Shown here one piece after another: positions 1 to 53,908 of a DNA stretch of 64,000 bases. Numbering within the stretch: position 1 is the stretch's first letter; every line of letters starts with the position of its first letter. Source of the DNA: an uncultured Candidatus Saccharibacteria bacterium (GTDB taxonomy: Bacteria > Patescibacteriota > Saccharimonadia > CAILAD01 > JADZBC01); assembly GCA_964413715.1 (NCBI GenBank), contig CAYPSN010000003.1:1750-65749 (forward strand), in the 5' to 3' direction. Both the position numbers and the translations under genes were made by a program. The notes below the pieces were generated by a model that was not told the DNA's origin, made no database searches, and was given only the letters and a program-made list of their open reading frames with translations.

Positions 1-1883
1 TGGTTCCCGAAGGCAACAGCTACGTCCGCGATGCGGTCACGCTGGAGACCCTCGAGTACTGCATCCTGCTCGACGAGAACGGTCAGAAGCGCTACGTGCG
101 CGGACCGGCCGTGGTGTTCCCGAGCCCGACGGAGACGTTCAAGACGAACGACAGCCGTCAGCGGGTGTTCCGGGCCATCGAGCTCAACGAACAGTCGGGC
201 CTGTACGTGAAGGTCATCGCCGAGTACACGGAGGATGGGGAGACTCACCCCGTCGGCGAGGAGCTGTTCATCATGGGCAGCGAGCAGGCCATCTACTACC
301 CGCGGGCCGAGCACAGCATCATCACCTACGACGGGAGGCAGAAGCATCATGCCATCGCCATCCCCGCGGGTGAAGGTAGGTACGTCCTCAATCGGACCAC
401 CGGCCAGGTCAACCTGGTCAAGGGTCCGAAGATGTTCCTGCCCGACCCTCGCACGGAGGTGGTGGTCCGAAGGATCCTCGATCCGCACGACGTCCAGCTG
501 ATGTTCCCCGGCAACGATGAAGCACTGGAGGTCAATCGGCGCTACCAGCGCGAGAGCAGCACGCTGGAGGGTGGCGAGCACCTACTGAGCCGTGAGGCAG
601 TGCGGGGTTCGTCGTCCGACGTGTTGGGTTCGTTCGCTGCTGGCGACGAGGAGTTCGGGGGCGACACCATGTCGCGTGGTACCACCCACACCCCACCGCG
701 CACCATCACCCTCGACACCAAGTACGAGGGTGCGGTCGCGGTGCAGGTCTGGCCGGGCTACGCGATCCTCGTCACCAACAAGACGGGGGATCGTCGAGTC
801 GAGGTAGGGCCGAAGGTGGTCCTGATGGAGTACGACGAGACGATGATGGCGCTCGAGCTGTCCACGGGGCGGCCCAAGAGCGACCGGAACCTCCTGCGTA
901 CCGGTTACCTGAGGGTCGTCAACAACGTCGTCAGCGATCGGGTCACCGTCGAGACCAAGGACCTCGTCACTATCCAGGTGGAGCTGTCCTACCGGGTCAA
1001 CTTCGAGGGCGACTCGGCTCGCGAGCAGCAGCGCTGGTTCGACGTCGAGAACTACGTGCAGGTGCTGACGGATCACTGCCGTTCCCGGCTGCGCAACGTG
1101 GCCAAGCGGTACCAGATCCGTGAGTTCTACACGGAGATCATCGACATCATCCGCGACAGCCTCCTGGGTGTCGTGCCGGAGAGCGGCGGTTCCCGCGAGG
1201 GACTGAAGTTCGCCGAGAACGGCATGCGGGTGTACGACGTCGAGATCTTGGATGTGACGATCCAGGACCCCGAGGTGGAAGAGCTTCTCACCGATGCTCA
1301 GAGCTCGGCTCTGAGCGGAGCCATCCGCCTGTCGATGGCAGAGGAGGAGGCCGAGCGGACGAAGGCCACCGAGCAGCTCAATCGCCAGACCCTGACCGAG
1401 CAGCAGCTCACGACGGATCTGCGGGCCGAGCTGGCGTTGACGGCGACTCGTCAGCTGCTCGAGCAGCAACTCGCGGACATCGCGTCCGAACTCGACCAGC
1501 GCAAGGAGCGCGCCAAGGTGGAGGAGCATGACCTCAGGCAGGCTCGCAAGCGTTCGGATCAGGAGACCGAACTCCTCCGGGCTCGCAACGAGGCGGAGCT
1601 CGAGCGACTGCGTGTCGAGACCGAGCTCATGTTGTCCCGTCTCGACAAGGTCCAGCCGGGCCTGATCGAGGCGCTGACGTCGTTCGGTGACCGCCAGCTC
1701 GCTCAGCAGATCGTCACGGCCATCGGCCCGGCGGCTCTCGCCGCCGGTCTGACGACCGCCGACATGCTGAGCAGCGTGTTCGAAGGCACCCCGCTTGCGG
1801 GTGTCATCAGCGCGTTCGCTGAGCGGCCGCTGGCCAACGGCAACGGGTCTCGTCCGGCACTCACGGGCGCCGGACCGGACTGA
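1..1883 (+). CDS. Major vault protein (MVP)-like protein, 5'-truncated at the window edge; lies in a high-GC cassette
   Basis: The reading frame is open from nt 3 with no upstream stop, so the gene starts outside the window. GC is ~67% against a ~45% backbone. The protein is colinear with the eukaryotic MVP shoulder, cap-helix and cap-ring regions as recalled from memory. Examples are VEVGPKVVLMEYDETMMALELSTGRPK against human [27 protein letters not shown], and RWFDVENYVQVLTDHCRSRLRNVAKRYQIREFYTEIIDIIR against [41 protein letters not shown]. A long E/R/Q/L coiled coil follows, then an AIGPxxL...G C-terminus. Confidence 0.6.
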   Translation, partial: VPEGNSYVRDAVTLETLEYCILLDENGQKRYVRGPAVVFPSPTETFKTNDSRQRVFRAIELNEQSGLYVKVIAEYTEDGETHPVGEELFIMGSEQAIYYPRAEHSIITYDGRQKHHAIAIPAGEGRYVLNRTTGQVNLVKGPKMFLPDPRTEVVVRRILDPHDVQLMFPGNDEALEVNRRYQRESSTLEGGEHLLSREAVRGSSSDVLGSFAAGDEEFGGDTMSRGTTHTPPRTITLDTKYEGAVAVQVWPGYAILVTNKTGDRRVEVGPKVVLMEYDETMMALELSTGRPKSDRNLLRTGYLRVVNNVVSDRVTVETKDLVTIQVELSYRVNFEGDSAREQQRWFDVENYVQVLTDHCRSRLRNVAKRYQIREFYTEIIDIIRDSLLGVVPESGGSREGLKFAENGMRVYDVEILDVTIQDPEVEELLTDAQSSALSGAIRLSMAEEEAERTKATEQLNRQTLTEQQLTTDLRAELALTATRQLLEQQLADIASELDQRKERAKVEEHDLRQARKRSDQETELLRARNEAELERLRVETELMLSRLDKVQPGLIEALTSFGDRQLAQQIVTAIGPAALAAGLTTADMLSSVFEGTPLAGVISAFAERPLANGNGSRPALTGAGPD

Positions 1884-3607: not shown

Positions 3608-6337
<2,730 letters not shown>

Positions 6338-6338
6338 A

Positions 6339-6395
6339 AGAAAGAGACCCACAGAAGGAGTCGAGCGAAGGTTGCCCTTCTGGGGGTCTCTTTCT
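6339..6395. terminator. Long GC-rich hairpin serving ligA (+) and the high-GC cassette gene at 6420-6734 (-)
   Basis: aagaaagagacccacagaagg ... ccttctgggggtctctttct forms a ~20-bp stem with one mismatch and a 17-nt loop. Confidence 0.5.
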
Positions 6396-6419
6396 ATGGG
6401 TCTTGGTTCGGATCGGTGA

Positions 6420-6734
6420 CTAGTCGCCGAAGATCACCTCTCCGTTCAGCGCTGCGCGAGTCGCCTTGAAGTGGGGCCACCACGGCATGCGCTTGTCCTT
6501 TTCGAGGACACCTTCAGCCGGGTATTCGTCCCATGTGGGCGTCGTCGGGTTCCAGGTGCAGCCGACCATCAGCTTGAGGGTGCGGACTTCGCGCCCTCCT
6601 ACTGACCTCTTAACGACATCATAGACGCCGATGGTGAACACATCACGACGGGTTTCGTCTCGCCCGATAGCTGTCTCCGCTCTCACGATGAGACAGTCGC
6701 CCTTCTCAAGCCGGGCCATATCGATGGTGGCCAT
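6420..6734 (-). CDS. Hypothetical 104-aa protein (high-GC cassette, partner of the serpin-like gene)
   Basis: Start ATG (MATIDMARLEKG...) sits 5 nt after GGAAGGAGGTGG. A sigma70-like promoter (TTGACA-17-TAAAGT) lies directly upstream on the minus strand. GC-rich codons. No family recognised (W/P-rich C-terminus TWNPTTPTWDEYPAEG...MPWWPHF). Confidence 0.5.
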   Translation of the reverse strand: MATIDMARLEKGDCLIVRAETAIGRDETRRDVFTIGVYDVVKRSVGGREVRTLKLMVGCTWNPTTPTWDEYPAEGVLEKDKRMPWWPHFKATRAALNGEVIFGD

Positions 6735-6770
6735 CTGGACCACCTCCTTCCATAGGTAGGAATGTTGATA

Positions 6771-6799
6771 CTTTACAACAACATACAACATATGTCAAT
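6771..6799 (-). promoter_or_regulatory. Putative sigma70-type promoter for the 6420-6734 gene
   Basis: On the minus strand, TTGACA, a 17-nt spacer, then TAAAGT. The ATG is ~40 nt downstream and the SD is correctly placed. Confidence 0.35.
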
Positions 6800-6945
6800 G
6801 CAAGTCAGCTGGGTTTGGACTATTCCGCATAGACTATAGTCGAATCAAGGTTCTTTCCTATAGCAAGCTAAAAAGAATCAGACTCATAAGGGGGCTGAGT
6901 GAGGAACAGCCTAAATCTTCAATGTACTTGAAGACTTGGGTTGGT

Positions 6946-6977
6946 CCAGGACCGGCATCCGAAGATGCCGGTCCTGG
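6946..6977 (-). terminator. Hairpin terminator downstream of the serpin-like gene
   Basis: ccaggaccggcatc-cgaa-gatgccggtcctgg is a perfect 14-bp stem just 3' of the minus-strand stop at 6995. Confidence 0.5.
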
Positions 6978-6994
6978 CGGAACGAGCAGGAGGA

Positions 6995-7861
6995 TCAGAG
7001 GCTAGAGAGGTCGCCGGGGTCCTTCCAGTCTTCCTCGGTGATGTGCGCCTGGAAGATCGGGACGTCGACCTTGGGGTGTTCCATCCAGACGAGGAAGGGA
7101 CGGTCGACGCGGTAGATCTCCAGTCGGGGACCGGCACCGCGGAAGACCACTCCCAGAGCGGTTGCTTCCTTGGCACGTGCTCCGTGCTGGTTCATGCCGA
7201 ACTTGACCTGCTGCAGCGCTTGTTCGATGTACCACGGTCCGCTGTGCAGCGCGCCGTTCTCCGGATCGACCAGCCACTTCAGATCCGGTTTCTGATCGAG
7301 CTTGACCATCGGGATGATCACCCTGTCGATCTTCTTTCCGGCACGCATGGGCTTCTTGCGCAGCTTCTCGACGGCCTTGATCAGCTTGAACTGGCCGCCG
7401 GGATCGGGAGCCACGCAGATGAAGACCGTCTCGTCGCCCTTGGTGCTGAGCTTGATGATCGGTTCCTCGCTGCCCTCGACCCACAGGATCTCGAACCTCT
7501 TGGAGGAGAAGGCCGGGTAGCTGACGTCACCGACGTGCAGCTGCGTCTCGTCGCCGCTCTCCGGCCACTCGACGAAGATGTCGTTGATGGAGACGGTCCC
7601 GAACTTGGTGGGGTCGTTCCCCCACGAGTTGAGCCGGATGTCGAAGCCGTTCTCGGCCAGGATGGCGTTGATCTCCTCGGCCGTGCGCTTGGCCCAGCTC
7701 TTGAGGCTGGGCATGTGCTTGATGGACTCGGCGTAGCGGCCGTACCGCTTGAGCAGTCTGCGCTGCTCCCTGTTCGAGGCCTCCCAGTTGAGGGGGCCGA
7801 TGAACTCGCCGGCTGCCTCGAGGGCTCCGACGAGGGTGGCCAGACTGAAGCTGGTGGTCAC
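6995..7861 (-). CDS. Short serpin-like protein (C-terminal serpin signature; ~80-100 aa shorter than canonical serpins)
   Basis: GTG start 5 nt after AGGAGGAA. High GC. The C-terminus carries the serpin signature and hinge: KEATALGVVFRGAG (hinge-like), YRVDRPFLVWM (fits the remembered PROSITE serpin pattern), then PKVDVPIFQAHI. Earlier blocks (ETVFICVAPDPGGQ, VIIPMVKL) parallel serpin strand motifs. The upstream sequence is low-GC backbone, so the ORF cannot extend further. Confidence 0.5.
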   Translation of the reverse strand: MTTSFSLATLVGALEAAGEFIGPLNWEASNREQRRLLKRYGRYAESIKHMPSLKSWAKRTAEEINAILAENGFDIRLNSWGNDPTKFGTVSINDIFVEWPESGDETQLHVGDVSYPAFSSKRFEILWVEGSEEPIIKLSTKGDETVFICVAPDPGGQFKLIKAVEKLRKKPMRAGKKIDRVIIPMVKLDQKPDLKWLVDPENGALHSGPWYIEQALQQVKFGMNQHGARAKEATALGVVFRGAGPRLEIYRVDRPFLVWMEHPKVDVPIFQAHITEEDWKDPGDLSSL

Positions 7862-8000
7862 GATTCCTCCTGCTGTTGGATGTACGGAACAACAAAAGGG
7901 CATAAAGCCCTCTGCATAAACAATACTTTATAATAAAACAATAAAAAAGTCAATATAACCAGCTACACATTCGTCCTACTGGCTGGTAAACTAATACTAT

Positions 8001-8300
8001 ATGGCGAAAGATAAATTCAGTGTAAATGAAGTAGACAAGCTGGCTGACCTGGCTAGAATCGGCTTAAAAGATGAAGAGAGAACTGATTTAACCAAGAGCT
8101 TAACTTCGGTATTGGAGTTTGTAGATGCGCTTAATGCGGTAGATACAAAAGACGTGAAGCCGACCAGCCAAGTTACTGGGCTTCAGGACGTTCTGCGCGA
8201 AGACGAAGTTGTGCCCTGCAGCTTAAGTCGTGATGAGTTGCTCGCCAATGCACCAGCCGTGCAGGATGGCTATGTGAAGGTAAAGCGGGTGCTGCAGTAA
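8001..8300 (+). CDS. gatC: Asp-tRNA(Asn)/Glu-tRNA(Gln) amidotransferase subunit C
   Basis: 99 aa with GatC-like sequence; directly upstream of and overlapping gatA. Confidence 0.85.
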   Translation: MAKDKFSVNEVDKLADLARIGLKDEERTDLTKSLTSVLEFVDALNAVDTKDVKPTSQVTGLQDVLREDEVVPCSLSRDELLANAPAVQDGYVKVKRVLQ

Positions 8301-12799: not shown

Positions 12800-13297
12800 T
12801 CAGGCGACCGGCTGGTCTTCCAGCTCCCAGGAGGTTCGGGTGGTGAACTCCGACAGCCGCGGCGCCTTGAGCTCCTTGGCCTTGTGGTCCAGCCACAGCA
12901 CGATGGCTTGCTGCTGCTTGAGCTGGTCGGGAGAGACGTTCGCTTGCATGGTGGTCTCCCAGCCGATCTGCGAGTTCGCTCGGTCGATGAGCTTGGCGAC
13001 GAAGTCGTCGCCCATCAGCTTGCCGATGGCGGTACGCATGCGATCGTCGCCGATGACGTGCATGAACTGGCCACCAGGACTGGTACGCAGCAGCGTCTTG
13101 AGCGGAACGGACAGCTGGATGATGCTGCCGTCAGCCTTGGCTGCGATGGTGATGCTCTCGACCGTCGTCTCGATCGCGACGTCGTTGTCGGGGTCGCCCT
13201 GGTTTCGGAACTGCACCACCAGCAGATCGCCGTGGCTGTAGCCCTTGCCCGAAGCGATCTTGCCTGGCATGGGGATTCTCTGGAGTGTTGCTTGCAT
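12800..13297 (-). CDS. Hypothetical 165-aa protein (high-GC cassette)
   Basis: ATG follows GAGAGGAAG with a 3-nt spacer. GC-rich codons. The ORF-track extension to 13381 runs into low-GC backbone and is spurious. No family recognised. There is only a weak local resemblance to Hsp20 strand motifs (GDPDNDVAIE, DGSIIQLSVPLK). Confidence 0.45.
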   Translation of the reverse strand: MQATLQRIPMPGKIASGKGYSHGDLLVVQFRNQGDPDNDVAIETTVESITIAAKADGSIIQLSVPLKTLLRTSPGGQFMHVIGDDRMRTAIGKLMGDDFVAKLIDRANSQIGWETTMQANVSPDQLKQQQAIVLWLDHKAKELKAPRLSEFTTRTSWELEDQPVA

Positions 13298-13471
13298 TGA
13301 CTTCCTCTCGTGTCGATTGCAACAGTAATTCATTTTGCCGAAGAATGCTGATTTTTGCAAGTAAACCATACGATGATACAAAAAATCTTACTTTTCAAGA
13401 CTTATGTTGCTTAAGGTTTGGGCATATAATGTATGTAATATGCAAAAGTGGGGTGAGGAGGGGTAACCTGC

Positions 13472-47456: not shown

Positions 47457-48005
47457 CTAACGAGCAGAGACGAAGCACTGCCTGCAGCGCGCTTCATAGC
47501 TGTAGGTGCCGTCTTCTGGCAGGATGGAGGGGAGCCCTCCGGTAACTTCTTTGCCGTCCTTGAGAACCTGACTGAAGCGTGCCTCGTAGCTCTTGCACAC
47601 ATCGCAAACAGCGATAAGGCACTGCACGCTTGTTGGACCAAGCTCCATCAGGGCGACGGTGCTTTCGATCAGCCTGCCTCGATAGTCCATATCGAGTCCG
47701 ACAGCATGAATGACTAGCCCCTTGGCCAAGAGCGAGTTCAACGCCCCCAGGTCGTCTTGACCGAACATGTGAACTTCATCGATGCCAATGACGTCGTAAT
47801 TGGCGAGCCAGTCGATGTCGAGTCTGTCGACCTTCGTCGTTTGGATGCTGGCACCTGCACGAGAACTGACTTGGGTTTCTCTGTCGTGAAGCTTGGGCTG
47901 CACAACGACCCACCGCATGTCGCTATGAGCAAGTGGCGAAAAGATTTTGACAAGCTCGAGGGATTTCCCCGACTTCATGGGTCCCATCGTAAGGTGTAGC
48001 GGCAT
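47457..48005 (-). CDS. tdk: Thymidine kinase (TK1/type II family)
   Basis: P-loop GPMKSGKS, VIGIDEVHMF, GLDMDYRG, and a C-terminal zinc ribbon (CDVC...CRQC) parallel the human TK1 motifs. ~68% GC, in a foreign-looking cassette. Confidence 0.8.
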   Translation of the reverse strand: MPLHLTMGPMKSGKSLELVKIFSPLAHSDMRWVVVQPKLHDRETQVSSRAGASIQTTKVDRLDIDWLANYDVIGIDEVHMFGQDDLGALNSLLAKGLVIHAVGLDMDYRGRLIESTVALMELGPTSVQCLIAVCDVCKSYEARFSQVLKDGKEVTGGLPSILPEDGTYSYEARCRQCFVSAR

Positions 48006-53399: not shown

Positions 53400-53860
53400 G
53401 CTCATAAAACTGTCTTGGCTCCTTGGCCTCCTTCGGGACGCCACTGGAGCAGTAGTAGTGCAAAGGTAGAGCGCCGCGCTTCCGTGGCTTCGGCCAGGAC
53501 GCCACCGCGTCTCCTCGCACTGCTACAGCGCTCCACAGGAGCCAAGACACTCTTCGGCGCAATGACTGCGAACGTGCCCTCACGGGCTTCTCGCCTTTGC
53601 GTCGCCAGCGGGGCGGGATCCGCCGCCTGCTCCGCTCGGACTACGAGCGCTGAACCTGTGACTGGGCTGTTGCCCTGGCGCGGAGTATAGCCTCACGAGA
53701 GGTTGGCACACACGTCGACCTCTCTCGCTCGTGTCAACCAGCTTTGGTTGACCATGAGCGCGACGCCGGGATCCGCCGCCTGGTGTCGCCGCCGGTGCGG
53801 GGCGGCCTCCGGGCCGCCCCGCACCTCGCCCTGACAATACGTCAGGGTTTCTTTTATTTT
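53400..53860. other. High-GC noncoding block with tetraloop hairpins and an internal 16-nt direct repeat
   Basis: No credible ORF. cgggatccgccgcctg occurs twice (~53610 and ~53770). Hairpins include the palindrome gcggggcggcc-tcc-ggccgccccgc, ccctgac-aatac-gtcaggg, gtcaacca-gctt-tggttgac, and several cc-TTCG-gg loops. Confidence 0.2.
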
Positions 53861-53908
53861 AGGAATAATTTCTTCGACTCCTCATAGTTTTTATGCTTAA
53901 ATAGGTAT

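Follow-up and report, generated by a model that had tools for sequence, protein, structure and literature searches.

The 64,000-nucleotide stretch of a Candidatus Saccharibacteria contig analyzed here (the window) carries two open reading frames (ORFs) between ligA (positions 4322-6337, plus strand) and gatC (8001-8300, plus strand), both in tandem on the minus strand (Table 1). The upstream ORF encodes a 288-amino-acid (aa) protein whose membership in the serpin superfamily is well supported by sequence comparison and structure prediction, and the downstream ORF encodes a 104-aa orphan. An earlier reading of this DNA from its letters (the original prediction) had delimited the 104-aa ORF correctly and described the pair as divergently organized, which their common strand contradicts.

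Both ORFs are rich in G+C (serpin-like ORF, 63%, with a fraction of 0.89 at third codon positions, GC3; 104-aa ORF, 60%, GC3 0.74) in a genome of 49% GC, where the genes that flank them have a GC3 of about 0.50. The host is, to judge from LigA, a member of the Saccharibacteria within the Candidate Phyla Radiation (CPR): LigA relatives that bear names (63-66% identity) are Candidatus Saccharibacteria, which agrees with the CPR part of an earlier proposal of a symbiotic CPR host. One public gene call (L001) chose a 330-aa ORF antisense to the serpin-like gene (6941-7933, plus strand); we regard it as a GC-rich shadow ORF, since homology is evident on the minus strand alone. Rfam searches of the window and the region returned just one tRNA elsewhere and sub-threshold noise.

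Table 1. Features of the ligA-gatC region and of the 288-aa protein (L009 and L011 are related loci described in the text; h, helix; s, strand)
Feature	Position	Strand	Basis or remark
Hairpin (arms of 20 nt) that separates the convergent ligA and 104-aa genes	6339-6398		Inverted repeat I1, 95% complementary; terminator-like on both strands
104-aa orphan gene	6420-6734	minus	ATG at 6734-6732; four Trp; downstream ORF of the tandem
Shine-Dalgarno GGAAGGAGGTGG of the 104-aa gene	6740-6751	minus	Sequence
Promoter-like TTGACA-17-TAAAGT, 104-aa gene	6770-6798	minus	Scan; orthologous and well conserved in L009
Double hairpin 3' of the serpin stop	6907-6977	minus	14-bp GC-rich stem with UUCG loop (6977-6946); 10-bp stem (6937-6913), then UUU
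288-aa serpin-superfamily gene	6995-7861	minus	GTG start 7861-7859, TGA stop 6997-6995; upstream ORF of the tandem
Family-specific C-terminal tail EDWKDPGDLSSL after s5B	codons 6998-7033	minus	Conservation
Hinge to start of s4B, residues 227-256	codons 7094-7183	minus	Antithrombin alignment, translation, statistics on 205 sequences
Shine-Dalgarno GGAGGAA of the serpin gene	7864-7870	minus	2 nt before GTG; same CAGGAGGAATC-(G/T)TG in L011
Promoter-like TTGACT-17-TAAAGT, serpin gene	7925-7953	minus	Consensus scan; TTGAC and -10 box to 5' untranslated region align with L011 upstream sequence
Remnant of ancestral ligA-gatC intergenic sequence (CAGCTACACATT...ATACTATATG)	7957-8000	plus	Marks edge of inserted block
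Proposed hA	residues 7-21 (helix)		Inferred from model
Proposed s6B	residues 25-27		W26 90% conserved
Proposed hB	residues 31-47 (helix)		N30 and Q33 96% conserved
Proposed single A-sheet strand	residues 53-58 (strand)		Inferred from model
Proposed hF	residues 61-70 (helix)		I64-N65-x-x-L68...G72 resembles I157-N158-x-x-V161...G of alpha-1-antitrypsin
Proposed s3A and breach Trp194	residues 86-98 (strand) and W99		W99 98% conserved

A compact serpin family

The original prediction had recognized a serpin C-terminus in the upstream gene product, and the motifs that it quoted were borne out. The motifs KEATALGVVFRGAG, YRVDRPFLVWM and PKVDVPIF are all present in the translation, the hinge among them, and the Pfam Serpin model (PF00079) matches the last ~70 residues (E=5e-6, 26.4 bits; residues 206-274 against model positions 300-367 of 370). 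Some relatives exceed the Pfam gathering score (30-35 bits), 61 of 100 family members match the model at E<=1e-3, and no family other than Serpin recurs in the Pfam scan of these 100. Searches of the PDB with phmmer gave weak matches to antithrombin and PAI-1, and a family profile built from 17 homologues matched PAI-1 with E=4e-11 over ~150 residues (profile positions 125-276, PAI-1 residues 209-376); a 100-sequence profile had the same outcome. Scans of NCBIfam, PADLOC and PHROGs yielded no match to the protein.

When modeled by AlphaFold2 with the family alignment, the whole chain is predicted confidently (predicted local distance difference test, pLDDT, 92.7; predicted template modeling score 0.82). 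The model has the serpin tertiary fold, with sheets A, B and C and helices, and Foldseek matches it to serpins at probability 1.0, with relaxed serpins as the best structural matches.

Short proteins of this kind are numerous. A word-indexed search recovered 19 homologue clusters of 285-316 aa, and an exhaustive profile search yielded 3200 representatives at a threshold of E<=1e-3 and 865 at the stricter E<=1e-30, so that the family comprises at least 865 clusters, represented at 50% identity. Among the matches listed in the E<=1e-30 search, nearly all are 280-305 aa long and aligned end to end, in keeping with the earlier claim that a protein of ~289 aa is truly short. Family members come from bacterial and archaeal-looking metagenome contigs. 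A scan of genome contigs with a narrower alignment found three metagenome-assembled genomes only (Holophagales, Thermoanaerobaculia, Burkholderiales), and tblastn against phage GenBank together with IMG/VR gave no viral homologue.

Because its homologues have the same length, the 288-aa protein is neither a fragment nor a frameshift product, and the idea that the ORF is a decaying or frameshifted remnant of a full-length serpin gene is hardly credible, even though the protein falls ~90 residues below canonical serpins and is matched by Pfam only over its C-terminal 70. Hundreds of same-length homologues have colinear N-termini, with 143 of 162 members beginning at most 15 residues from a conserved N-terminal helix. 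Moreover, the gene is under purifying selection (ratio of nonsynonymous to synonymous substitution rates, dN/dS, ~0.24), a strong Shine-Dalgarno sequence and a promoter lie directly upstream, the modeled chain is confident throughout, and the protein is identical in several independent assemblies. None of the outcomes that the original prediction had named as refuting it occurred, whether absence of a hidden Markov model match, an unrelated fold or an ORF lengthened by frameshift correction.

The part of the protein whose correspondence to serpins is established by alignment is the C-terminal 55%. This part contains s1B-s3B, hG/hH, s2C, s6A with an invariant Pro184, a shortened hI region, s5A, the hinge, the reactive loop, Pro255-Phe256 opening s4B, and s5B. 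An s1C-like LEIYRVD segment lies between the distal loop and Pro255-Phe256. After s5B comes a family-specific tail, WKDPGDL, whose motif is found in 121 of 162 members (Trp279 95% and Pro282 96% conserved).

For the N-terminal 125 residues, we mapped elements by the secondary structure of the model and by conservation, with alpha-1-antitrypsin as the reference (Table 1). Canonical serpins have about 350-400 aa and nine helices (hA-hI), and roughly 80 residues separate hB from hF; the 288-aa protein falls outside this description, and its model has six helices of at least 4 residues. Because only 13 residues join the putative hB and hF, the elements hC, hD, s2A and hE look deleted, and thus ~70 residues that form them in canonical serpins appear to be missing from between hB and hF. 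The A sheet would then have four strands, plus the loop once inserted. An earlier suggestion that the first 80-100 residues are lost therefore seems incorrect, as the N-terminal helices and the hF and s3A motifs seem to be kept and the deficit looks internal. Comparisons of the family with alpha-1-antitrypsin by hhalign and hmmsearch aligned only the C-terminal ~70-100 residues and missed the N-terminal half, and the N-terminal mapping is tentative for this reason.

Additional domains occur in some relatives. Four members (P0085, P0136, P0148 and P0158) have in common an N-terminal add-on domain of ~85 residues with the motif H-x-G-P-I-x-R-x-L-x-x-G-x-V-V-x-W; this domain neither matches a Pfam model nor resembles the 104-aa protein. 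In another member, P0073, a WGR domain is inserted.

Inhibitor or scaffold

The small-residue pattern of the hinge separates inhibitory from non-inhibitory serpins. The hinge of the window protein reads G227(P15)-A-R-A-K-E-A-T-A, and across 205 family sequences P15 is Gly in 100%, P14 Ala in 99%, P12 Ala or Val in 89%, P10 Ser in 79% and P9 Ala in 91%. The family thus follows the inhibitory consensus (P15 Gly, P14 small, P12-P9 small and uncharged), with the P10 Glu of the window protein as an atypical residue. Arg or Lys occurs 12-14 residues past the hinge Gly in 76% of these sequences; in the window protein, Arg241 (codon 7141-7139) is at the canonical P1 distance and aligns without gaps opposite Arg393, the P1 residue of antithrombin (alignment to antithrombin 362-426). 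The distal loop is the least conserved stretch of the family, and loop length varies by several residues. Beyond it, a conserved s1C-like motif, h-x-h-(D/N)-x-P-F, suggests a conformation that contains s1C.

On some metagenome contigs, two or three paralogues of the compact serpin, 33-40% identical to one another, lie in tandem: L030:2739-5423, L031:978-2750, L092:5869-7816 and L094:729-2676. These paralogues keep the hinge (12-16 of 21 positions identical) and not the distal loop (2-5 of 14-16).

A signal-peptide-like extension was seen in 1 of 162 members, and the 288-aa protein is predicted to be cytoplasmic. At slightly better than even odds, we consider it a suicide-substrate inhibitor that acts in the cytoplasm on an Arg/Lys-specific protease and whose predicted P1 is Arg241. 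Attack by a protease that cleaves on the C-terminal side of Arg or Lys would fall on the exposed loop near Arg241; insertion of the hinge (Gly-Ala-x-Ala/Val-x-Ser/Glu-Ala) into sheet A as its strand 4 would follow and trap the enzyme.

Several observations speak against this proposal. The Pfam score misses the Serpin gathering score of 27.0 by 0.6 bits, a marginal shortfall that is offset by the independent profile match to PAI-1, which supports homology. The assignment of missing helices follows element order and resemblance to a motif of alpha-1-antitrypsin, while alignments reach the C-terminal 55% only. No target protease is indicated or encoded beside the gene, and a survey in which ORFs were called on ~88 family loci (80 of them from a metagenome scan) and then clustered revealed no conserved neighbor. 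In the single best AlphaFold2 model, residues 227-240 form a strand beside s5A, which is the loop-inserted, relaxed state and could represent either a resting or an end state. The P10 Glu is common to the window protein's own clade, and a charge there should disfavor insertion; a covariation search for its partner residue returned clade markers only. Finally, the basic residue is 1-2 positions nearer the hinge than canonical P1 in most members.

Some of these points fit better with a non-inhibitory serpin-fold scaffold, in which the "hinge" would be a permanent fourth strand of sheet A and the protein would have another role, for example in binding a ligand or partner by way of its variable loop or of the conserved tail at its C-terminus. 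Ovalbumin, Hsp47 and PEDF are non-inhibitory serpins. The inserted state is modeled with a pLDDT of 97-98 for residues 221-240 and without an s1C strand, although AlphaFold may just return the lowest-energy state of a metastable protein. Relaxed serpins top the structural matches, P13 is Arg, Lys or His in 92% of sequences, and GARAKEATA is near-invariant in the window's clade, which is more than a flexible hinge would lead one to expect; the P10 Glu and the apparent lack of hD, s2A and hE, which are thought to aid the canonical conformational switch, point the same way. We nonetheless think a scaffold role the less likely of the two, although a serious alternative, given a hinge with the small-residue pattern of inhibitory serpins, a basic residue kept near P1 in about three-quarters of members, conservation of the s1C-like motif, and paralogues in tandem that differ chiefly in the distal loop.

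Among known proteins, prokaryotic serpins such as thermopin (Thermobifida fusca, PDB 1mtp), tengpin, miropin and aeropin are close relations of the family, and the closest structures to the 288-aa model are those of prokaryotic serpins (thermopin) and of relaxed vertebrate serpins. PAI-1 (clade E), the best sequence match of the family profile, has Gln at the shutter position equivalent to His334, as does the 288-aa protein (Gln217, in s5A), and further likenesses to the family are the Ser at P10 and the Arg at or near P1. Its spontaneous latent, loop-inserted form resembles the state predicted for the 288-aa protein. However, PAI-1 is a secreted vertebrate protein of 379 aa, and the match spans only the C-terminal 55% of the compact protein. 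Reduced serpins also occur in viruses, and CrmA (cowpox, 341 aa) and SERP-1 (myxoma) are like the compact family in spirit. Although helix D and parts of hA and hE are absent from CrmA, it inhibits caspases inside cells, and it gives the highest target-normalized template modeling score with the 288-aa model (0.54). The compact family differs from these viral proteins in being prokaryotic and ~50 residues shorter and in bearing Arg or Lys, not Asp, near P1.

Our literature search found nothing relevant on short, mini or truncated prokaryotic serpins or on serpins in CPR or DPANN organisms, and the compact ~290-aa family is apparently undescribed. The main and most complete phylogeny of serpins discarded sequences that fell more than 25% below the median length (PMC8233489); this filter would leave out most compact members, and curated models mostly miss the family. 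More speculatively, and with the odds against so broad a claim, the ~290-aa proteins might constitute a class of their own, ancient and widespread "mini-serpins" in Bacteria and Archaea. Such proteins would be intracellular inhibitors with a four-stranded A sheet and without hC, hD, s2A and hE, and would represent the smallest functional serpin scaffold, moving horizontally as single-gene units into the reduced genomes of Saccharibacteria and small archaea.

Serpins are the classic example of a protein whose function depends on a metastable fold. If the compact proteins are still inhibitory, a family ~25% below canonical serpins would define the minimal loop-insertion machinery and offer a compact scaffold for engineering. 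If they are locked in the relaxed state, the serpin fold would have been reused for something else.

Transcription units and history of the ligA-gatC junction

The original prediction had assigned a TTGACA-17-TAAAGT promoter, built from low-GC sequence, to the 104-aa gene. Both the site and the low-GC spacer that separates the two ORFs (46.5% GC) were confirmed, whereas a matching site in front of the serpin gene had been overlooked. Since this second site, TTGACT-17-TAAAGT, precedes the serpin gene, each gene has a promoter-like element of its own, and the two are predicted to be separate transcription units. A promoter scan of the region detected 2 such sites, versus 0.8 expected from shuffled sequences.

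The two promoters form a 32-nt direct repeat (6768-6799 and 7923-7954, minus strand) that is 72% identical, with copies 1155 bp apart. Exact TTGAC-N18-TAAAGT occurs only three times in the 64-kb window, as does TAAAGTAT. Their likeness might reflect either common descent or a promoter type specific to this lineage. Duplication of a promoter by the serpin insertion is disfavored, as each promoter has its own orthologue, that of the serpin gene in L011 and that of the orphan gene in L009.

The double hairpin 3' of the serpin gene (inverted repeats I6 and I2) has a predicted folding energy of -44.2 kcal/mol (z = -6.0) and is probably a terminator or mRNA 3' end. It is ~85% identical over ~88 nt to the corresponding hairpins of L011 (L011:6870-6945), versus 68% for the ORF DNA, and one compensatory pair change distinguishes the stems with the UUCG loop. 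Among 107 loci, only these serpin loci have the double hairpin, and it is absent from the viral contigs searched (phage GenBank, IMG/VR). The hairpin between ligA and the 104-aa gene, a probable bidirectional terminator by its sequence, is conserved in L009 and absent from three related loci in which ligA and gatC adjoin without either gene (L105-L107); because these empty sites lack it, we assign it to the 104-aa insertion.

A further hairpin is located at 7895-7913 (minus strand) in the 5' untranslated region, between the serpin promoter and the Shine-Dalgarno sequence. Its AGGGC-UUUAU-GCCCU sequence followed by a U-rich run is terminator-like; its fold energy falls short of significance (z = -1.3), and L011 does not preserve the stem.

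In L105-L107, whose LigA proteins are 84%, 78% and 77% identical to that of the window, gatC begins 45-55 bp past ligA and the junction is empty (L105:6014-6056, L106:6014-6061, L107:5504-5557). A motif, GCTACACATT...ATATG, immediately follows ligA at the empty junctions of L106 and L107. Because this motif survives at 7957-8000 of the window, everything from 6338 to ~7956 is taken to be inserted. The same arrangement of both genes is found in the window and in seven independent assemblies, so the locus is not a chimera.

L009 has the orphan unit only, consisting of hairpin, ORF and promoter, whereas the window has the orphan unit and the serpin unit, with the latter situated between the promoter of the orphan and the flank on the gatC side. 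In ligA, gatC and gatA, the window and L009 have reached saturation of synonymous differences (proportion of synonymous differences, pS, 0.71-0.80), compared with a pS of 0.42 for the orphan gene, a value that strong GC3 bias may depress somewhat. This low pS and the empty site in the closest relative suggest that the orphan unit reached the two lineages after their split. The serpin unit has flanks in common with the L011 copy despite the latter's different genomic location, namely TTGAC, the -10 region, the 5' untranslated region, the Shine-Dalgarno sequence and the 3' hairpins. We conclude from these common flanks that the serpin gene moves within Saccharibacteria as a promoter-ORF-hairpin unit.

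Given the empty junction of three relatives, it is well supported by these sequence comparisons that the region represents two independent insertions of GC-rich foreign DNA. The older insertion would have brought the 104-aa gene with its own promoter and the bidirectional terminator, and the younger one a self-contained promoter, 5' untranslated region, 288-aa ORF and 3' double hairpin. The best overall explanation, in which this lineage of Saccharibacteria acquired an intact compact serpin, probably an inhibitor, horizontally and in an insertion separate from that of the 104-aa gene, has in our estimate a probability of about 0.6. The nearest homologues outside Saccharibacteria are 48-50% identical to the 288-aa protein. 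Across the family, the genes are usually native in composition (median GC 2.5 points above flanks), and they exceed their flanks by at least 8 points in 8 of 58 loci, L011 and the archaeal-looking L020 among them. The empty, one-unit and two-unit states of the ligA-gatC junction, with the low pS of the orphan gene, suggest that it is a recurrent insertion site for single-gene units, and the locus would record the stepwise gain of foreign GC-rich genes at one intergenic site of a reduced genome.

The 104-aa gene belongs to a very small family, with only 3 homologue clusters in 5.8 billion proteins, all from close Saccharibacteria and 81-100% identical. The protein has no match in Pfam, NCBIfam, PADLOC, PHROGs, the PDB (including by profile) or phage records, its AlphaFold2 model is poor (pLDDT 56), and Foldseek matches to the model are insignificant (E>=0.14). 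Comparison with L009 indicates purifying selection (dN/dS 0.18). It is a real gene and is unrelated to the serpin gene.

The two genes were originally envisaged as a protease-inhibitor or toxin-like module, and they are indeed adjacent, on the same strand, GC-rich, and each preceded by TTGAC-N18-TAAAGT. A functional pair, whether of protease-inhibitor or toxin-antitoxin type, is nevertheless very improbable given how the genes are distributed. In L009 and L010, the 104-aa gene lies at the same site between gatC and ligA without the serpin gene. Conversely, the closest serpin homologue, P0002 of L011 (62% identity, Candidatus Saccharimonas sp.), resides among pilin and NUDIX genes without the 104-aa gene. 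The other contexts of the serpin family have nothing in common (Burkholderiales, a contig of low GC, one of high GC, and an archaeal-looking one that carries TruD and PTH2). The largest neighbor cluster in the survey of family loci covers 7 loci, some on near-duplicate contigs, and the search for co-occurrence that had been suggested found the 104-aa partner in no other serpin-family locus examined. The disparity in family size (3 clusters versus at least 865), the separate promoters, the hairpin pair between the genes and the lack of PADLOC or PHROGs matches likewise argue against a module. Therefore, the serpin gene stands alone, and its pairing with the 104-aa gene is local to this lineage.

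Other GC-rich segments of the window

Additional GC-rich segments occur elsewhere in the window. A 58% GC stretch at ~53400-53900 contains no convincing ORF. The islet at 12800-13381 (minus strand) encodes a 193-aa orphan ORF beside dnaE and may correspond to a 165-aa gene similarly placed in L009, and the islet at 47457-48005 (minus strand) encodes a 182-aa ORF that looks thymidine-kinase-like by eye. At the start of the window, positions 1-1883 (plus strand) are a 64% GC island that represents the 3' part of a gene for a protein of ~870 aa, for which matching public contigs exhibit Band_7, Vault_3 (weak) and MVP_shoulder domains. This gene, in a Saccharibacteria genome of 49% GC, appears from these annotations to be major-vault-protein-like.

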